From: Longimicrobiales bacterium
GTDB taxonomy: Bacteria; Gemmatimonadota; Gemmatimonadetes; Longimicrobiales; Gaopeijiaceae
Length of the DNA stretch: 64,000 bases
NCBI GenBank assembly: GCA_041690395.1
Contig: JAWLHJ010000004.1
Span: 465,365 to 529,364 of the forward strand
Direction: 5' to 3'
Shown here: in pieces, positions 2 to 8,048 of the stretch
How positions within the stretch are numbered: the stretch's first letter is position 1
Layout: each line of letters starts with the position of its first letter
Made by a program: the position numbers and the translations under genes
Notes under the pieces: generated by a model
What the model was told of the DNA's origin: nothing
Databases searched by the model: none
The model's input: only the letters and a program-made list of their open reading frames with translations

Positions 2-1615
2 GGTCTGGCGGCAAGCATCGGAAGAGGCGCCATGTCGAACCCGCTGGCGGACATGGAGCGTCCCGATGTGATCTTCTGCATCGGGACCAATATGACCGAG
101 GCGCACCCCGTGGCAGCCACCCGTCTCAAGAAGGCGATCGCCCGCGGGGCGAAGATGATCGTTGCGGACCCGCGCCGGATCGACCTCGCCGAGCGCGCGC
201 ACCTGTACCTGCCCATCCGGGTGGGGTCCGACACCGCGCTCCTGCTCGCGATGGCGCACGTCATCGCCCGCGAAGGGCTGGTGGACGAGGCGTTCCTGCG
301 CGACCGCACGGTCGAGGGGGAGGCGTTCCTCGAACACGTGAAGGAGTTCACGCCCGAGTGGGCGTCGGAGATCTGTGAGGTGCCGGCCGAGGACATCGAG
401 CAGGCGGCGCTCTGGTACGCGCGGGCCGAGCGTGGCGCGATCTACTACACGCTCGGGATCACGGAGCACGTCTGCGGCGTCGAGAACGTCCAGAGCCTCT
501 GCAACCTGGCGTTGATGACCGGCCACATAGGACGCGAGGGAACCGGCATCAACCCGATGCGCGGGCAGAACAACATCCAGGGCGCCGGCGACATGGGCGC
601 CATCCCGAACAACTACCCCGGCTTCCAGCCCGTCTCGGACCCGGCGAACCAGGCGAAGTTCGAGAAGGCGTGGGGGACGAAGGTCGATCTCGAGGTCGGG
701 ATCACGAAGATCACGATGCTCGACCAGGCCGGCGACCAGATCCGCGCGGTCCTCATCGACGGCGAGAACACCGTGGTCTCGGACGCCGACCGCAGGCACG
801 CGGAGAAGGCGCTCCGGAAGCTCGACTTCCTCGTGGTGTGCGACCTCTTCCTCACGGACACCGCCGAACTCGCCGACGTCGTCTTCCCGGCGGCCGGCTG
901 GGCCGAGGTCGACGGAACCCAGACGAACACCGAGCGCCGCGTGCAGCGCCTGCGGGCGGCCGTTCCGCCCCAGGGCGAGGCGAAGCCCGACTGGTGGATC
1001 GTGAGCCGGCTCGCCCGGCGCATGGGCTTCCAGGGCTTCGACTACGAGAGCGCGAAGGAGGTCTTCAACGAGATGTGCGCGCTGTCGGCCACGTACCGGG
1101 GGCTCGACTGGGACCGTGTCGAGGAGGGGCGCTATCAGTGGCCCGTCCCCGAGGAGGGACATCCCGGCACGCCTCGTCTGCACGAAGGCGTGTTCGAGAA
1201 CGGCCGCGGCATCTTCAAGCTGACGAGCTACCGCGATCCCTCGGAGGTCATCGACGACGACTATCCGGTCTGGCTCACGACCGGCCGCCGGCTGCAGTCG
1301 TACCACACGCACACGCAGACGGGGCGGACCGCGGGCATCGAGTATCTGCTCCCGGGCGAGTCTCTCGAGATCCATCCGGACGACGTGGAGAAGCTCGGGC
1401 TGACCGACGGCGGGCTCGCTCGCGTCACGAGCAGACGGGGAAGCGTCGACGTTCCCGTCCAGGCGAACCCCCGGTCACCGAAGGGGACGGTCTTCCTCTC
1501 GTTCTCGTTCGCGGACATTCCGGTGAACGTGCTCACCGGCGGCGGCTACGATCCGATCACGCAGACGCCCGAGGTGAAGGTGTGCCCCGTGCGCGTGGAA
1601 GCGGTCAGAGGATGA
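2..1615 (+). CDS. Formate dehydrogenase alpha subunit (FdhF-like molybdopterin oxidoreductase), 5'-truncated by the window edge
   Basis: Frame is open from nt 2 (GLAASIGRGAMSN, the segment just after the Cys/Sec-His active site). Motifs EAHPV, PMRGQNNIQG, GTQTNTERRVQ and C-terminal TTGR..YHT. Confidence 0.9.
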   Translation, partial: GLAASIGRGAMSNPLADMERPDVIFCIGTNMTEAHPVAATRLKKAIARGAKMIVADPRRIDLAERAHLYLPIRVGSDTALLLAMAHVIAREGLVDEAFLRDRTVEGEAFLEHVKEFTPEWASEICEVPAEDIEQAALWYARAERGAIYYTLGITEHVCGVENVQSLCNLALMTGHIGREGTGINPMRGQNNIQGAGDMGAIPNNYPGFQPVSDPANQAKFEKAWGTKVDLEVGITKITMLDQAGDQIRAVLIDGENTVVSDADRRHAEKALRKLDFLVVCDLFLTDTAELADVVFPAAGWAEVDGTQTNTERRVQRLRAAVPPQGEAKPDWWIVSRLARRMGFQGFDYESAKEVFNEMCALSATYRGLDWDRVEEGRYQWPVPEEGHPGTPRLHEGVFENGRGIFKLTSYRDPSEVIDDDYPVWLTTGRRLQSYHTHTQTGRTAGIEYLLPGESLEIHPDDVEKLGLTDGGLARVTSRRGSVDVPVQANPRSPKGTVFLSFSFADIPVNVLTGGGYDPITQTPEVKVCPVRVEAVRG

Positions 1616-1835
1616 TCGCGAGCGGCAGCAGGACGACGTAGGCGAGCACCAGCAGCAGCGGCGCGGCCGTGATCGAGCCCTGGGCGAGCAGCCAATAGCC
1701 GAGGGTGAGCGTCAGGAGCCCGGCGGCTCCGAGCATCGCGTTCACGCGCGTGAAGCGGAGCGCGGCCGGTTGGCTTCGCGCTGCTTCGGCGGCTCTGCGC
1801 CGCGAGGGCTTTTTCGTTCGGTTCTCTTTGGGCAT
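1605..1835 (-). CDS. Small two-TM membrane protein (DUF3098-like)
   Basis: 76 aa with a basic N-terminus, then LGYWLLAQGSITAAPLLLVLAY hydrophobic hairpin. Lies directly after the NtrC gene. Confidence 0.6.
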   Translation of the reverse strand: MPKENRTKKPSRRRAAEAARSQPAALRFTRVNAMLGAAGLLTLTLGYWLLAQGSITAAPLLLVLAYVVLLPLAIIL

Positions 1836-1846
1836 GGCGGCTGATT

Positions 1847-3214
1847 CTAGACTCGGGCTTCCGCTGGGTCAATCGGATCGGCCAGATGGCTCCTCAGCTC
1901 GTCGACTTCGATGCCGAGCGCCTCGGCCGCCTTCTCTTCGTCTCCGTCGCAGCTCTCGAGCACGACCGTGACGTGCCTCCGGATGGCAGCCGCGAGCGAC
2001 TGGTCACCGCCGCCTTCGGCCGAGCCGTCCTCGTCGCCGAGAATGAGGTGGTCGGCTCCGATGACGGTTCCCCGCGCCATGATCGCGGCGCGCATGAGCG
2101 CGTTCTCGAGCTCCCGCACGTTCCCCGGCCAATCGTGCGCGCGGAGCTTGAGCACGGCACCGTCGGAGATCCGTCGGACGTTGCGGTGCGTCTCCTCCCG
2201 AATACGGCCGAGCATGGCGTTCGCGATCAGCTCGATGTCGTCGGGACGGGCGCGGAGCGGCGGCACTTCGATCTCGACGACCTTCAGGCGGAAGTAAAGG
2301 TCCTCGCGGAACGTCCCCTCCTCGATGAGCTTCTCCACCGGCTGGTGCGTGGCCGCGATGACGCGCGCCTCGGTGCGTCGCACCTCCTCTCCACCCACCG
2401 GATAGAAGCGCCGCTCCTGGAGCACCCGCAGGAGCTTGGTCTGGAACTCCGGGCTCGTGTCTCCGATCTCGTCGAGGAAGATCGTGCCCTTCTTCGCGAG
2501 CTCGAAGTATCCCTTGCGGGCCCCGGACGCCCCCGTGAACGCGCCCTTCACGTGCCCGAAGAGCTCCGACTCCAGGAGCGTGTCGGTCAGCGCGGTGCAG
2601 TTGACCGCGATGAACGGCTCGTCGGCGTACTCGGAGTGCTGATGAATCGCGCGCGCGATGACCTCTTTGCCGGTTCCCGTCTCGCCCCGGACCAGCACCG
2701 TGGCCCGGTTGCGCGAGAGCACGCCGATCGTCTTGTAGATCTCGATCATGCGCGGGTTGCGCCCGACGAGCTTGCCGCGTGGCAACGCGCCGTCGTCCTC
2801 GGCCGTGTCGTCGTCCGCGACGTCGACGTTCAGCGCCCGCTCACGGAAGCACCGCTCGGCCAGTCCCTGCACCGCCTTCGGGTCGACCGGCTTCACCAGA
2901 AAGTCGAACGCGCCGGCCTTCATGGCGGTGACGGCGGTCTCCATGTCGTCGTGCGCGGTCATGACCACGACCTCGACACGCTCCATGGACGAGCGGATCC
3001 GCTCGAGGAGCTCGAGGCCGGTCATCCCCGACATACGGACATCGGTCACCACCAGACCGGGGTCGAACGAGCTGACCCTGGCCAGGGCCTTTTCGGCGCT
3101 CTCGGCCGTCTCGACCTCGTAACCGGCATGGGCGAGGCGGGTCCGGAGCACTTCGAGGCCGTCGACGTCGTCGTCGACGACGAGAATTCGCTGGGATACG
3201 GAGGGTTCGGTCAT
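1847..3214 (-). CDS. Sigma-54-dependent response regulator (NtrC family)
   Basis: Receiver domain (VVDDD, TDVRM, FLVKP), Walker A GETGTGKE, ESELFGH, GAFTGA, FLDEIGD, WPGNVRELEN. Start moved to the ATG at 3214. Confidence 0.93.
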   Translation of the reverse strand: MTEPSVSQRILVVDDDVDGLEVLRTRLAHAGYEVETAESAEKALARVSSFDPGLVVTDVRMSGMTGLELLERIRSSMERVEVVVMTAHDDMETAVTAMKAGAFDFLVKPVDPKAVQGLAERCFRERALNVDVADDDTAEDDGALPRGKLVGRNPRMIEIYKTIGVLSRNRATVLVRGETGTGKEVIARAIHQHSEYADEPFIAVNCTALTDTLLESELFGHVKGAFTGASGARKGYFELAKKGTIFLDEIGDTSPEFQTKLLRVLQERRFYPVGGEEVRRTEARVIAATHQPVEKLIEEGTFREDLYFRLKVVEIEVPPLRARPDDIELIANAMLGRIREETHRNVRRISDGAVLKLRAHDWPGNVRELENALMRAAIMARGTVIGADHLILGDEDGSAEGGGDQSLAAAIRRHVTVVLESCDGDEEKAAEALGIEVDELRSHLADPIDPAEARV

Positions 3215-3224
3215 GGCGAGAATG

Positions 3225-4337
3225 TTAACCCCCCACGCCGGAGTCAGGGTCCACGTCGGCCGGACCGCGTGGGTCGCGTGGGCCACCAGGGTCGTCAGGG
3301 GTACCCGGTGGCCCCTGCTCACGCCGGACGTCGATGGGCTCGAGGTTCCAGTAGGCGGGGAGGTCCGGAACCTCCTCGGCCCTGAGGCGCGCCAGCTGCT
3401 CGTCGTTCCGCACCTTCCGCACCCGGACCATGTAGATCAGCACCACCCCGAGGAGGAGCCAGAACACCGACGAGCGTGCGACGACGAAGAGCCAACCGTA
3501 CCGGGATTTCACGTGCGCCCGCCAATCCTCCTCCAGCTGGCCGCTCGTGACGCCGTACGTCTGCCGCAGGGCCACCTCGAACGATCGTTCCTCGCGCCAC
3601 CGCTCCAGGAAGATCGCCAGGCCGCGCTCGCCGCTCCCTTCCAGTAGATAGGTCACGGCGCTCGCCGACAGGAGGTACGCGGTGCGCGCCTGGTCCCGGC
3701 GGCCGGGCCATCCGAGGGTGATCGAGTCGAGGGCCGGCGTGCCTCCGAACGCCAGCCCGACCCTGAGCTGCCACACCTCCATCGCGTCGAACCCACCGGC
3801 CGCCCACTCGGCGTACCCTTCGTTGAACCAGCGGGGGATGCGGAGCCCGCCCAGGAACTGGTGCAGCCCGAGGTGGGCCCACTCGTGACGAAGCGTACGG
3901 AGCCCTTCCCCGGAGAGTACCCCGGTGCCTTCACCCGACGGGATCACGAGCAGGTGGCGGGAAGGAACGGCCACCCCTGCACGCCACTCCGGAACGGCGC
4001 CGCCGATCGCCTGGTCCAACGCGGCCGGCGAGTGCGCCAGCACCGCGTGCACACCTGACGGGATCGAGTCGGGGAGGGCCGGGAGCGGTGCCTGGGCGTC
4101 GAGAAGGTCGCGCATGCGCTCGGCCAGCGCGGCCTGGGCGGGAACGTGGTAGACGGTCGCGCGACGGCCGGGAAGCGCGACGTAGGGCAAGCCGTCGAGC
4201 GTGTCCGGCACCGGAGCAGCCTCGACCTGGAACGCTGCCAGCTCGCCCACGCCGCCCGGAACGAAGGCCAGCAGGATGGCGAGCGCGAGCCCGAGGACCA
4301 CACGGGCACGAGCGCTCGAGACCCCGGACTCCTTCAC
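3225..4337 (-). CDS. Membrane-anchored zinc metallopeptidase (peptidase MA-like)
   Basis: N-terminal signal/TM segment, HEWAH plus PRWFNEGYAE zincin motifs, C-terminal TM. Start overlaps the upstream stop. Confidence 0.8.
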   Translation of the reverse strand: MKESGVSSARARVVLGLALAILLAFVPGGVGELAAFQVEAAPVPDTLDGLPYVALPGRRATVYHVPAQAALAERMRDLLDAQAPLPALPDSIPSGVHAVLAHSPAALDQAIGGAVPEWRAGVAVPSRHLLVIPSGEGTGVLSGEGLRTLRHEWAHLGLHQFLGGLRIPRWFNEGYAEWAAGGFDAMEVWQLRVGLAFGGTPALDSITLGWPGRRDQARTAYLLSASAVTYLLEGSGERGLAIFLERWREERSFEVALRQTYGVTSGQLEEDWRAHVKSRYGWLFVVARSSVFWLLLGVVLIYMVRVRKVRNDEQLARLRAEEVPDLPAYWNLEPIDVRREQGPPGTPDDPGGPRDPRGPADVDPDSGVGG

Positions 4338-5959
4338 CCGGCTTGCAGCATCTCCAGGTTGGAGCGTACCGCCTCGTTGTGGGGGTTCAGATCGAGCGCC
4401 CGCCGCCAGAGGAGGAGCGCGACGTCCCGGTCGTTGTCCTTGTAGGCCATGGTGCCGAGCCGGAGATAGACGTCGTCTCCGAGCCGGGGCGAGAGCTTCA
4501 CGGCCTTCTCGTACTGCACCCGGGCGCTCTCCATGTCACCATGCGCGTACGCCTGGTCGCCGAGGTTCTTGTGGGCCTGGGGTGGCGGCGGCTGGACGGC
4601 CACCGCTCGCTTGTAGAGAGCCGCCGCCGCCTCGACTTCCCCGCGTCGCTCGAGGACGGCGCCCGTGTTCACCAGGATCGCACCGGACTTCGGATAGTGG
4701 CTCATGCCCTCCTGGCCGACCCCCACCGCGAAGTCGAGGTCGCCGGCGACGGCCGCGGCCAACACCGTGTAGGCGTAGTACTGCTCGGCCGGGACCTTGA
4801 GGCCGGGATAGGTCCGGTACCGGCGGAGCGCCTCGAGCGCCTTGTCGACCCGCTGCGCCTTGAAGTGCACGATCCCGCGGGCGAGGTACACCTCATGGTC
4901 CTTGGGACGGGCGACCGCGGCCGCGTCGAGCGCCTGGAGCGCATCGTCGTACCGCCCGAGGGCCTCGAGGGCGAGAGCCGTGTTCCGATGGACGGCGTAG
5001 CTCTCGGCGTACCCGGGGGGCATCGACCCGAAGTGCTGGAGCGACTCCTCGAGCCGGCCGCGTCGGAACGCGATCAGACCCATCATGAAGTTCGCGCGCG
5101 CCTGCCGGGGATCGGCCTCCAGGGCCTCCTCGAACTCGCGCTGCGCATCCTCCAGCATCCCCGACCGGTAGAACGCGATCCCGACGTTGAGGTGCTGCTG
5201 AAGGGCCTCGTCGCCGCCCGTCTCCTCCTCGGTGGTCCGCTCGCCGGTGCGGGATACGAAGCCGGCCTGGATGAGGCCGTAGAGGGCCTTCCCGGTATCG
5301 AACTCGACGAGCCCCGCTTCGTTCATGATCTCGTGCACGGTCCGCACGCCGTCCACGAAGGGCAGGATCTTCTTCTGGTGCGGGGTGAGCTCCACCTCGG
5401 CTTCGCTGACGGACGTCGTGGGGTCATGGTCGACCTGGAAGACGATGTCGAACGACGGGATCTTCTTCTCGACCAGGCTCCACTCGTCCACGCGCCGGGC
5501 ACCCTCCATGAGGAGCGCCTCGGGCGGGATGTCGACGAGCAGGAGGCCGTCCTCGTCGGGCATCTGGTCCGTGTCGAAGTGGAACGACCCCTGGGACCAG
5601 GTGAAGAGGTGGTAGACCGCCTCCTCGACCTGCATCTGGATGTAGCGTCGCAGGTCGTCGTGGGTGAGCGCGCCCATCTCCACGAGGATCTCGCCGAGGC
5701 GCTTGCTCTTGTCGCGCGACTGCGTCTCCATCGCGCTCGACAGGTCTTTCCGCGTGATCACGTGGTTCCGGACCAAGAGCTCGCCGAGGCGGTCCCTGCG
5801 GTTCAGAACGGAGGCGTAGATCACCCGCCCCTTCTGGAAGTAGACGTATCCGAAGTTCGACCGGTCCGTGATGCTCAGGCAGCCGGTCTTGCGGCCCATC
5901 CCGAGCAGCTGGCAGATGTCGGCCAGGCTGACGTCCTGGAGTGCGCCCTCGATGGCCAT
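4334..5959 (-). CDS. DUF4388 domain protein with MshEN-like motif, winged-helix-like segment and TPR repeats
   Basis: Starts MAIEGALQDVSLADICQLLGMGRKTG (DUF4388 pattern). Several TPR-like repeats (AQREFEEALEADP, ALDLNPHN). ATG overlaps the upstream TAA. Confidence 0.85.
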   Translation of the reverse strand: MAIEGALQDVSLADICQLLGMGRKTGCLSITDRSNFGYVYFQKGRVIYASVLNRRDRLGELLVRNHVITRKDLSSAMETQSRDKSKRLGEILVEMGALTHDDLRRYIQMQVEEAVYHLFTWSQGSFHFDTDQMPDEDGLLLVDIPPEALLMEGARRVDEWSLVEKKIPSFDIVFQVDHDPTTSVSEAEVELTPHQKKILPFVDGVRTVHEIMNEAGLVEFDTGKALYGLIQAGFVSRTGERTTEEETGGDEALQQHLNVGIAFYRSGMLEDAQREFEEALEADPRQARANFMMGLIAFRRGRLEESLQHFGSMPPGYAESYAVHRNTALALEALGRYDDALQALDAAAVARPKDHEVYLARGIVHFKAQRVDKALEALRRYRTYPGLKVPAEQYYAYTVLAAAVAGDLDFAVGVGQEGMSHYPKSGAILVNTGAVLERRGEVEAAAALYKRAVAVQPPPPQAHKNLGDQAYAHGDMESARVQYEKAVKLSPRLGDDVYLRLGTMAYKDNDRDVALLLWRRALDLNPHNEAVRSNLEMLQAG

Positions 5960-7926
5960 TAGTCGAGCTCCTCGATGAGGAGGTCGACCATGCGGGGCCA
6001 GTAGATCACGGCGTTCTCTCGGCTCGGAAACCAGGCGCCGCCCTTCCTGGGCGTCGCCGGGGGTGCCGGTTCGGGAATGACGGTCTTGGCCTTGGGCTCC
6101 CTGCGGGGCTGCGCCGGAGCGGTCGGGGTCTGCTTCGGCTGGGCGGAGGTCGCCACCGGAGCGCCCGCCGGCGCGACGTCCGGCTCCGGGGCCTCGGGGC
6201 CTTCGGGGGCGATCTCGGCGGCCGGTGCGCTCGTTTCGCTCGCCGGCCCGCCGATCATCTCGTCGAGCTGCAGGTCCGGCACGAACGACGAGCTGTCGAT
6301 GGAGATCCGCTGATCCTCCAGGATCAGGTCGCTCCCGGGCGTGCCGCTGTTCAGCTCCAGCACCAGGCCGCCCTCGAAGCGCGACCGCAACCGGTCGTCG
6401 ATCCCCCCGATCTGCGCCGGCACCCGGTCGGACAGCAGGAGCACACGCGCGCCGCGCCGCTTGAGGGCCTCGAAGAGGTGGAAGAACTCGTCCTGGGCCC
6501 GCTCGGTCTCCGAGAGGGCCTCGACTCCGTGCACGAGGAGCAGGTCCACCGTCCACCACCGCTCCCGCCACGCCCCGGCGACGCCCTCTCCGAGCGCGCG
6601 GATGAAGTCGTCGGCGAAGTCGCTCAGCGACGTGACCGCCATGCGTGCTTCGGGATGGGTGACCTGATAGGTCCGCCCCGCCGCGCCGAGAAGCGTCTTC
6701 CCGAGGTCCTCGTCCGGCGCGGCGACGAAGAGCGGGTTGTACTCCGGACGATCCCTTCCGACGAGCTGGGCCGCCGCCTTGAGCACGATACCCGGGAAGT
6801 CTGCGAGATCCGTCAGCAGCTGTCCCCGCGCCAACCGCGGGAACGGGCGCTGCCGCTCGCGGACCGACGCCAACAACGACTCGGCCTCCCCGATCCGGTC
6901 GGGGTCCTTGAGGACGCCGGCGGCCGCCTCGGGCCACGGGTTGCCGAGCTCGTCGAGCTCGTCCTCGATCTCGCGGAGTCGGTCGACGTCCCGGCGGAAG
7001 CCCTGGACGACCTCCTCCCACCCTTCCGGCTCGGACCCTTTCATGTATGGGTCGAGGCGGAGGCTCGAGAAGCCTTCGCGCTCGGCCGTGTCCACGGCCT
7101 CGCGGAACGCACGCCGCCAGGGCTCTTCCTTCTCTTCGACGACCTCGGCCAGCGAGGTGACGAGATCGTCCAGAAACGAGTCGAACTCGGCATCGTGGGC
7201 GCCTTCGCCCGACGTGACCGAGCCCATGAGCAAGGGCACCTCGTCCACGCGCACCCGCCGCTCCTCGAGCTCCTGGGTCGCGAGGACCTTGTTCAGCCCG
7301 CCGCCCAGCTCACGAACGTTCCGGAACGGATGCCGTGCGAGCGCCTCGGCCACACCGGGCTCCAGGGTCTGGCCGCGCCCCTCCGCCTTCTTGCGGATGA
7401 TGGCCACCCGCGTCTCGTACTCCGGGACACCGATGTCCACGATGAGTCCGCCGGAAAAACGAGACAGCAGCCTGGCATCGAGCCCGTTGATGTCCGCCGG
7501 CGGCCGGTCGCTGGCCAGCACCACCTGGCTCCCCGAAGCGGACAGCTCGTCCAGGGTGCGCAGCAGCATCTCCTGGGCTTCCGGCTGGCCCGTCACGAAC
7601 TGCACGTCGTCCAACAGCAGGATGTCCAGCTCCTTGAAGATCGCCATGCTGTCCTGGGAGCCGTCCTCGATGGCCGACTCCAGACGCTCCAGGTACTTCT
7701 CCAGCGCCATATACTCGAGCTTGCGCCCGGGTGACGTCTTGAGCGCCTGGTGCGCGATCGCCGTCAGGATGTGGGTCTTTCCGAGCCCCGACGCCGAATA
7801 CACGAACAGCGGGTTGTAGCTCGTGCCGGGGGAATCCGCGGCACGCCTGGCCGCCGCGGAGGCCAGACGGTTCGCGGGACCCACCACGAACGACTCGAAA
7901 GTCAGCTTGGGATCGAAATCCGACAT
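5959..7926 (-). CDS. DnaA/Hda-family protein with two tandem AAA+ domains
   Basis: TFESFVVGPANRLA, YNPLFVYSASGLGKTH, LLLDDVQF, RLLSRF, NVREL. Second copy YNPLFV..LGKTLL..RLRSRFEGGL. No DnaA domain I or IV. Confidence 0.85.
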   Translation of the reverse strand: MSDFDPKLTFESFVVGPANRLASAAARRAADSPGTSYNPLFVYSASGLGKTHILTAIAHQALKTSPGRKLEYMALEKYLERLESAIEDGSQDSMAIFKELDILLLDDVQFVTGQPEAQEMLLRTLDELSASGSQVVLASDRPPADINGLDARLLSRFSGGLIVDIGVPEYETRVAIIRKKAEGRGQTLEPGVAEALARHPFRNVRELGGGLNKVLATQELEERRVRVDEVPLLMGSVTSGEGAHDAEFDSFLDDLVTSLAEVVEEKEEPWRRAFREAVDTAEREGFSSLRLDPYMKGSEPEGWEEVVQGFRRDVDRLREIEDELDELGNPWPEAAAGVLKDPDRIGEAESLLASVRERQRPFPRLARGQLLTDLADFPGIVLKAAAQLVGRDRPEYNPLFVAAPDEDLGKTLLGAAGRTYQVTHPEARMAVTSLSDFADDFIRALGEGVAGAWRERWWTVDLLLVHGVEALSETERAQDEFFHLFEALKRRGARVLLLSDRVPAQIGGIDDRLRSRFEGGLVLELNSGTPGSDLILEDQRISIDSSSFVPDLQLDEMIGGPASETSAPAAEIAPEGPEAPEPDVAPAGAPVATSAQPKQTPTAPAQPRREPKAKTVIPEPAPPATPRKGGAWFPSRENAVIYWPRMVDLLIEELD

Positions 7927-8017: not shown

Positions 8018-8048
8018 AAAAAAAGGGTGATCCGGCCCGGAGCGGACC
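8018..8048 (-). terminator. Possible intrinsic terminator after rluD
   Basis: Weak stem GGUCCG/CGGAUC followed after 4 nt by U7 on the minus strand. Confidence 0.35.

Follow-up and report, generated by a model that had tools for sequence, protein, structure and literature searches.

What does a DnaA-like ATPase do when its gene lies apart from that of the replication initiator, at the head of a run of five co-oriented genes? This question is raised by a 64,000-nt stretch of contig JAWLHJ010000004.1 from a Longimicrobiales bacterium of the phylum Gemmatimonadota (below, the window), on whose minus strand the original prediction had seen a signalling module made up of an initiator-clade AAA+ protein, a scaffold with a motif of the cyclic di-GMP (c-di-GMP) type, a membrane peptidase, an NtrC-like sigma-54 activator and a small membrane protein. 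The layout is as claimed: genes 1 to 5 encode 655, 541, 370, 455 and 76 residues, genes 1 and 2 share the start/stop overlap TAATG (5957-5961), genes 2 and 3 the overlap GTGA (4334-4337), and the gaps between genes 3 and 4 and between genes 4 and 5 measure 10 and 11 bp. The same five-gene order is found in 12 of the 19 loci of the window's own family (f1), or in 13 if one with an insert is counted, and is therefore not a matter of chance. Comparison with other genomes and loci (coded G and L, the window's own genome being G000) singles out genes 1 and 2 as a real, conserved and undescribed two-gene core, in which polarity and chemosensory wiring is combined with an unusual DnaA-derived part.

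The linked pair of genes 1 and 2

Gene linkage was counted by script over 91 loci, which had been chosen for a match to gene 1, gene 2, the C-terminal tail of gene 1 or the peptidase, for long contigs and for taxonomic spread, and not at random. Gene 2 is present in 68 of these loci (19 in f1 and 49 outside), and in all 68 the 25-residue tail motif of gene 1 is encoded at most 200 bp from the gene 2 start, with W643 and E652 of the tail invariant in 38 of 38 aligned rows. The ATPase part of the gene upstream of gene 2 varies, with two AAA+ modules in 50 loci (two of them split by a frameshift), one module in 10 and none in 8. Translational coupling of the two genes is retained in over a dozen genera. 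Across Gemmatimonadota, genes 1 and 2 hence form a fixed core pair; the neighbourhood survey that had been proposed as a check upholds this linkage and at the same time shows that the other genes are not fixed with the pair. On the scale of the phylum, a profile of the tail matches 293 of 401 genomes of at least 90% completeness, nearly always once and with a few matches near the E limit of 0.01 (G188 is included in the tally), and no tail is found in the other 108. By family, the tail occurs in 159/166 genomes of f4, 91/95 of f5, 25/72 of f1 (own genome excluded) and 0/30 of f7.

The loci form a natural deletion series. Eight genomes from four f5 genera have deleted both AAA+ modules together with the helical middle domain, and the remaining genes encode fusions of an acidic helix and the tail of only 60-86 residues that are still coupled to gene 2. 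On a marker tree of 32 genomes (FastTree; RsmH, TPR and FtsI), these ATPase-less genomes occupy two places: G146 groups with an intact genome (support 1.0), and six more make up a single clade (1.0). The eighth, G087, has no markers in its locus and is not on the tree. The partners of the mini-proteins keep the tetratricopeptide repeat (TPR) region to residue 486-494 or beyond, and N431 is present in 8/8 extra rows aligned. Three genomes from two other classes encode a single-AAA protein; its gene overlaps another that encodes only TPRs and aligns colinearly with residues 255-540 of gene 2 (probability 99.9, 282 columns); the degenerate tail of these single-AAA proteins was seen by eye and lies under the profile threshold. 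In G046, from another class, the DnaA-like/TPR pair is followed at a distance of 3 kb by a receiver-GGDEF gene, a CheR-TPR gene and two CheW genes (L145:187-3883).

Loss follows the same lines, since genes 1 and 2 have disappeared jointly in G036, G119 and G125, and in G017 where a scar is left. The tail and the TPR region are what survives every reduction, and where one is lost both are lost. At the G017 scar (L097:1-534), what follows rluA is a disrupted piece of the last TPRs of gene 2, and in G145 (L101) gene 1 is reduced to a 52-codon start.

Other architectures carrying the tail were sought among 311 representatives at E up to 0.001, and none is claimed as new. The best 150 of these 311 matches comprise 77 with a DnaA-like body, 26 of at most 60 residues, one helix-tail protein and 46 others, the latter mostly linker fragments or apparent chimeric calls. 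In P0249 and P0265, an N-terminal TPR stretch like that of a TPR-roadblock gene is fused to the acidic helix and tail, which may reflect natural deletion fusions or chimeric calls.

Predicted docking and domain make-up of the pair

The persistence of exactly these two parts agrees with a complex model computed from the whole gene 2 product and gene 1 residues 620-655 with our own alignments. The model scored 0.88 (0.88, 0.89 and 0.84 in the individual runs) as compared to 0.01 for the best of three controls; the score mark was reached by 116/157 solved and 2/215 mismatched pairs, counts that apply only roughly to our own alignments. The runs have at least 71% of contacts in common, and the pLDDT (predicted local distance difference test) of the partners is at least 70. 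In the modelled interface, residues 631-655 of the tail lie in the TPR groove formed by residues 287-497 of gene 2, with the best-defined contact pairs involving N431, V430, Q461, N465, K464 and N326. The contact residues are more conserved than the remaining TPR region (0.65 vs 0.52), inward-facing residues being favoured by structure alone, and a search for solved structures resembling the tail gave none (best E 0.81). The tail of gene 1 is thus predicted to bind in the TPR groove of gene 2, in line with the interaction between the products that had been suggested for modelling (0.88 vs 0.01), and the agreement of the deletion series with the model is the independent part of the support for docking.

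Gene 1 contains two Bac_DnaA stretches (Pfam, E 9e-76) and has no match to DnaA_N or Bac_DnaA_C at E 0.1, which means that domains I and IV are missing and bears out the description as an initiator-clade AAA+ protein without a DNA-binding domain. The genome's complete dnaA adjoins dnaN on contig C1, separate from this locus. For both reasons gene 1 is not the replication initiator, as had also been anticipated, and a TIGR00362 score just above the cut-off (346.7 vs 343.9) is an artefact that arises from summing the two modules. In the AlphaFold model (pLDDT 84.8, predicted template modelling score 0.51, 108 rows), the two AAA+ folds and the helical middle domain exceed a pLDDT of 90 and are accompanied by a disordered linker and a short end helix, the helix at 246-266 and the tail at 640-655 being less certain. 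F251 of the acidic helix is present in 38/38 rows.

We mapped the residues of both modules, D1 and D2, on E. coli DnaA, with the numbering checked against the E. coli sequence. In that protein K178 is the Walker A lysine, D235 and D236 belong to Walker B, D269 to sensor I, R281 and R285 to box VII and R334 to sensor II, and V211 and R245 mark positions in contact with single-stranded DNA. D1 retains all seven ATPase residues in 9/9 f1 rows, and V211 and R245 are replaced. D2 of f1 has an acidic P-loop, in which the lysine of the window protein is kept one residue out of register, and no Walker B Asp-Asp, lid or sensor II. Despite these losses, it retains R281, R285 and R245 and a hydrophobic residue at the V211 position (isoleucine in the window protein) in 9/9 f1 rows. 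D2 is a complete module in f4. In the f2 loci L046 and L048-L050, gene 1 has no D2, and D1 has no sensor II and often no arginine finger, while helix and tail stay.

The selective retention in D2 is what would be expected of a DnaA regulator, whose AAA+ modules co-assemble with the true DnaA or inactivate it by Hda-like donation of an arginine finger or capping, and whose tail tethers them to a polar, c-di-GMP-sensing scaffold so that initiation is coupled to polarity or the cell cycle. The closest fold match of gene 1 is indeed domain III of B. subtilis DnaA (8bv3, root-mean-square deviation 1.7 Å over 231 columns), and the cluster lies between divIVA-ileS-rluA and, in other families, mraZ-rsmH-ftsL-ftsI. 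However, a clamp-binding motif is absent from the first 40 residues of the gene 1 family (0/108 rows, with E. coli Hda positive as control), domains I and IV are missing, and a quick tree of 93 rows places D1 (34 rows, support 100) and D2 (31 rows, 99) on branches of their own, separate from 26 DnaAs of this phylum; the tree includes neither three near-duplicate loci nor the three other-class proteins. Moreover, the two ATPase modules have been lost on two occasions with the rest retained, and in more than a quarter of the phylum's genomes (108/401) no tail is found. We therefore regard a regulator of DnaA as unlikely. The same holds for a bolder form, in which a duplicated DnaA ATPase core would be held by its tail on a polar scaffold that binds c-di-GMP, assemble together with the true initiator and so hard-wire replication initiation to the MglA polarity switch; such co-assembly, doubtful as it is, would couple the cell cycle throughout the phylum in a manner different from that of Hda, DiaA, YabA or SirA.

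Compared to DnaA itself (TIGR00362; PF00308; 8bv3, 8btg, 2z4r, 2hcb), D1 shares the fold of domain III and all ATPase motifs, whereas gene 1 has two modules, no domain I or IV, an additional helical domain and the tail, and lies apart from the dnaA-dnaN locus. With Hda (TIGR03420) it has in common that an initiator-clade AAA+ protein without a DNA-binding domain keeps the arginine finger (here in D2), but it lacks the clamp-binding motif, scores below the cut-off (108.9 vs 194.8) and is nearer to DnaA in sequence and tree.

Gene 2 matches DUF4388 (PF14332; E 2e-40, 138 bits against a cut-off of 25), which is the PATAN domain according to passages of PMC12448109, and the MshE-related c-di-GMP motif NF053729 of NCBIfam (53.5 bits, cut-off 38). 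Its C-terminal part consists of TPRs with no C-terminal receiver domain in Pfam, and a whole-protein fold search returns TPR proteins only, so that the predicted scaffold with a c-di-GMP-type motif is recovered. Both tandem MshEN motifs are close to the consensus RLGxx(L/V/I)(L/V/I)xxG..LxxxLxxQ as quoted from PMC5013675, the deviations being H66, M77, A97 and a 6-residue linker, and the key residues at the R, L, G, first L and Q positions of that consensus are kept in 30-38 of 38 rows. A phmmer comparison of this segment with MshEN receptors gives E 6e-9 to 2e-4, and in a pattern search of the genome's own crude proteome gene 2 is the only open reading frame with both half-motifs. The MshEN receptors (MshE, PilB/PilF; 5htl, 6olj, 6f8l) likewise have two tandem 24-residue motifs; in gene 2, unlike in these, the motifs are inserted in PATAN and not fused to a pilus ATPase, the glycine of the first motif is a histidine, and the linker has 6 residues. 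PATAN is shared with the PatA-type response regulators of cyanobacteria (PixE), from which gene 2 differs in having an MshEN insert and a TPR superhelix instead of a receiver domain.

Of 80 genomes, 47 carry gene 2, each of them with two or more GGDEF matches, and gene 2 is missing from all 14 that lack GGDEF matches. Another 19 have GGDEF matches and no gene 2 match at the same threshold. Since the genomes with zero GGDEF matches belong to few related lineages and represent few events, this co-occurrence is no more than compatible with c-di-GMP sensing. The own genome has 9 GGDEF-family matches. The insert is dispensable in one clade: of seven insert-less partners among the eight ATPase-less genomes, six form one clade of the marker tree and the seventh, G087, shares its genus with two of them, whereas the independent case G146 keeps the insert. 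A link between ATPase loss and MshEN loss (7/8) was therefore dropped as one event only.

The ancestral MglA/Che cluster and the role of the pair

The gene order of 40 regions from f1 and five further families places the pair in a larger setting, which, like the docking tail, the original prediction had not included although its suggestion of a protein-interaction or c-di-GMP element linked to polarity fits well. Outside f1, the order runs CheW, CheY-like, CheA, CheC, a long TPR gene, a second PATAN protein, TPR-roadblock, two roadblock genes and MglA, followed by gene 1, gene 2, CheR, CheD, CheB, two CheW, a TPR gene, the peptidase and the small gene. MglA lies directly before the pair, at most 3.5 kb upstream, in 41/49 non-f1 loci, CheR downstream in 37/49 and CheB downstream in 41/49, in contrast to 0/19 f1 loci with a linked MglA, CheR or CheB. 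In f1 the MglA-roadblock-Che cluster has been deleted, and rluA and the peptidase gene now flank the pair. In two f1 loci (L037:13954-14445, L150:11820), one roadblock gene upstream of gene 1 has survived as a trace of the former mgl block.

The second MglA was not found in 27/27 f1 genomes, and a recR-linked MglA is present in 11/11 pair-positive ones. The own genome accordingly carries a single mglA, after recR, in the order dnaX-ybaB-recR-(105 aa)-mglA (L071:9705-10776; G000:C4, about 141.7-142.8 kb). Neither mglB nor a Robl_LC7 match was found in this genome (98% complete; the control matched in 3/14), which makes its MglA an orphan. The genome further encodes PilB/PilT-type ATPases, sigma-54 and one methyl-accepting chemotaxis protein inside a flagellar block. 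This chemotaxis block (L072; G000:C5, 92-112 kb) includes a receptor of the globin-coupled type and is unrelated to the present findings.

Built on the domain content, motif conservation, linkage and deletion series observed, our preferred reading, to which we assign a probability of about one half, is that the pair serves cell polarity or the control of type IV pili as an adaptor that is clustered by ATP and responds to c-di-GMP. Rather than a replication factor, it is probably what remains at the core of a system governing cell polarity and pili. The tail would, as predicted, anchor gene 1 in the TPR groove of gene 2. For the further steps we infer that D1 would bind ATP and self-assemble like domain III of DnaA, that D2 would contribute an arginine finger or a surface for this assembly, and that the self-assembly would cluster the tethered scaffold. 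Judged from its motifs, the MshEN insert may bind c-di-GMP and so modulate the PATAN/MshEN half, and the acidic helix may bind a further partner. PATAN could form the output to the pilus motor by analogy with cyanobacteria, where PATAN of PixE binds PilB1/PilC in Synechocystis (10.1101/2021.06.11.447907). In most of the class the surrounding MglA-roadblock-Che cluster would feed the pair; f1 has lost this cluster, keeps the pair next to rluA and the peptidase gene, and has gained a sigma-54 activator that is likely a passenger.

Several points weigh against the adaptor. Its ATP use, c-di-GMP binding and output are derived from sequence and models. With neither roadblock/MglB nor a second MglA in the own genome, the polarity link rests here on ancestry, and PilM occurs in 77/80 genomes regardless of the pair, so that there is no co-loss with pili (a tested association of pair loss with loss of type IV pili was discarded as uninformative, PilM being near-universal). 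TPR-peptide complexes of the same fold have been solved (Pins:Insc, LGN-Frmpd4), and the complex model may lean on this learned binding mode. D2 keeps the positions at which DnaA contacts single-stranded DNA, for which the adaptor has no need. Finally, none of the 8 ATPase-less genomes yielded a peptidase match, which hints at more than a passenger role for this gene.

The cluster could also be taken to mean that the pair serves the CheA-CheW-CheY-CheC-CheD-CheB-CheR system as an accessory, active in array remodelling or adaptation and in f1 either left over or re-wired to the flagellar Che proteins. The downstream position of CheR and CheB and the upstream position of CheA, CheW, CheY-like and CheC outside f1 are consistent with this, as is the presence of one chemoreceptor and a flagellar cluster on C5 of the own genome. 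Yet the pair persists without operon Che genes in 19/19 f1 loci and in G198 and G231, and the Che genes of the own genome are distant homologues (32-45% identity) in the flagellar block, which makes a Che accessory quite improbable. Least probable of all appears a decaying remnant without current function in f1. It would explain that partners up- and downstream were lost, that D2 is dead, that the pair was not found in 47/72 f1 genomes and that G017 and G145 bear scars, but it does not go together with the catalytic residues of D1 all kept in 9/9 rows, the retained MshEN, tail and groove residues, and the coupling maintained across all those genera.

Among characterized systems, the adaptor most resembles MglA/MglB-SgmX with Frz of Myxococcus xanthus, in that the ancestral cluster combines MglA, roadblock and chemosensory genes with TPR scaffolds. 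In M. xanthus, MglA and FrzS recruit SgmX, a scaffold of 14 TPRs (passages of PMC9811614), and polarity scaffolds of the MglA-SgmX type are treated in parts of PMC9811614 and PMC11580455. Here, by contrast, the genes form one cluster, the scaffold has PATAN and MshEN, the predicted ligand is a C-terminal peptide, and a DnaA-type ATPase takes part; the window's family is without linked MglA, roadblock or Che genes, MglA/MglB being found together in relatives and not in the own genome. SopA was considered as a DUF4388 protein and FrzS as binding SgmX by a C-terminal peptide, but both were dropped because literature passages say otherwise. Group 1 MglA has been noted in Gemmatimonadetes, with some Group 1 mglA genes near PATAN genes (PMC4316618, main text); DnaA has 0 occurrences in that main text, and its gene-neighbourhood table S2, outside the search, may list the locus. 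No initiator-clade ATPase re-used outside replication and tied by a short linear motif to a scaffold of PATAN, MshEN and TPRs came up in the literature searched, mostly open-access papers and main texts, which agrees with the initial impression that no system of this make-up has been characterized.

The tail is thus present in most genomes (293/401) of a large, little-studied phylum, and the natural deletion series, which leads from a 15-gene cluster to a two-part interaction of a 25-residue peptide and a TPR groove, tells core from optional parts. This opens tests of c-di-GMP and MglA-switch wiring outside Myxococcus, and of a DnaA copy that would link polarity to replication.

Genes 3 to 5 and neighbouring features

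Gene 3 matches Peptidase_MA_2 (Pfam, E 5e-16), with hydrophobic stretches at about 8-35 and 282-305, and the HExxH plus downstream Glu motif is found in 62/65 called gene 3 open reading frames, the three misses being truncated calls. Gene 4 combines a receiver with Sigma54_activat (E 9e-67) and an intact GAFTGA, and gene 5 has a hydrophobic C-terminal half and no family above cut-off; for all three, the domain and hydrophobicity calls agree with those made initially. Gene 4 has no HTH_8 match at E 0.1, and the recognition helix of its Fis-type helix-turn-helix (window 1850-1960) is acidic in this genus and basic in more distant orthologues; the activator may have lost DNA binding. TAACAT before gene 4 was rejected as a promoter, as it is not conserved in orthologues.

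If all five genes formed one pathway, the periplasmic peptidase would signal across the membrane, ATPase and scaffold would relay, and the sigma-54 activator would be the transcriptional output. The overlaps joining genes 1-3, the peptidase directly after gene 2 in 19/19 f1 loci and its absence from the eight ATPase-less genomes (two events) speak for such a pathway, as does an activator orthologue in 13/17 pair-positive as opposed to 1/16 pair-negative f1 genomes. Against it, the peptidase occurs in 60/80 genomes including 12/16 f1 genomes without the pair, in which it comes immediately after rluA and the order rluA-peptidase(-small gene) persists (L098-L113), and G025 and G103 keep the ATPase with no peptidase match. 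The activator directly follows the peptidase in 12/19 f1 loci and an insert in one more, is absent from the other 6 and from 49/49 loci outside f1, and has unrelated neighbours in the sister family; in G017, peptidase, activator and small gene are intact behind the scar of genes 1 and 2. With a promoter motif of its own before gene 5 in addition, we consider the pathway improbable, and the notion of a single five-gene module did not hold. Because peptidase and small gene stay when genes 1 and 2 are gone, they are part of the surrounding gene order, and the activator is a family-specific insert and likely a passenger.

Nor was the proposed single transcript confirmed. The motif TTGACC-17-TAGAAT (1872-1844) lies 8 nt before gene 5, and a -35/-10 motif ending 3-10 nt before the ATG recurs in 23/39 orthologue loci as compared to 0/229 other gene starts, for which reason a separate, leaderless transcript of gene 5 is likely, although transcription reading through from the upstream genes may occur as well. 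Contigs of one soil metatranscriptome (6% of words) are short pieces of relatives, 134/304 of them less than 90% alike, and none spans the region. The positions of all features are compiled in Table 1.

Table 1. Positions of genes, domains and signals of the locus within the window
Feature	Position	Strand	Remark
Gene 1, DnaA-like protein	5959..7926	-	AAA+ D1, acidic helix, helical middle domain, degenerate AAA+ D2, disordered linker, docking tail
D1 (gene 1, aa 2-226)	7249..7923	-	AAA+ module with all ATPase motifs
Acidic amphipathic helix (gene 1, aa 247-263; EFxxFLxD...V...V)	7138..7188	-	kept in ATPase-less mini-proteins
D2 (gene 1, aa 377-534)	6325..6798	-	acidic P-loop, no lid, no sensor II
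C-terminal docking tail (gene 1, aa 631-655; E637, W643, E652)	5959..6036	-	predicted in gene 2 TPR groove
Gene 2	4334..5959	-	PATAN (DUF4388) with MshEN insert, winged-helix-like subdomain, TPR superhelix; 541 aa
Tandem MshEN motifs (gene 2, aa 57-80 and 87-110)	5630..5791	-	from motif and residue comparison
TPR groove (gene 2, aa 287-497; N326, N431, Q461, K464, N465)	4469..5101	-	predicted tail holder, complex model
Gene 3	3225..4337	-	membrane-anchored Peptidase_MA_2 metallopeptidase, HExxH and downstream Glu
Gene 4	1847..3214	-	NtrC-type sigma-54 activator; insert specific to the window's family
Gene 5	1605..1835	-	76-aa membrane protein, class-wide conservation, no family
Sigma-70-type promoter motif	1844..1872	-	conserved; for likely leaderless gene 5 transcript
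Terminator-like hairpin and T run, between rluA and gene 1	8021..8048	-	weak: 3 found, 2.3 expected in shuffles

A fragment gene for a molybdopterin oxidoreductase (formate dehydrogenase alpha-like; window 32-1615) converges on gene 5 with an 11-bp 3' overlap. In other families, the small gene with its promoter motif (window 1605-1872 and orthologues) precedes a TPR gene and mraZ-rsmH-ftsL-ftsI, and may head the transcript of this division cluster.

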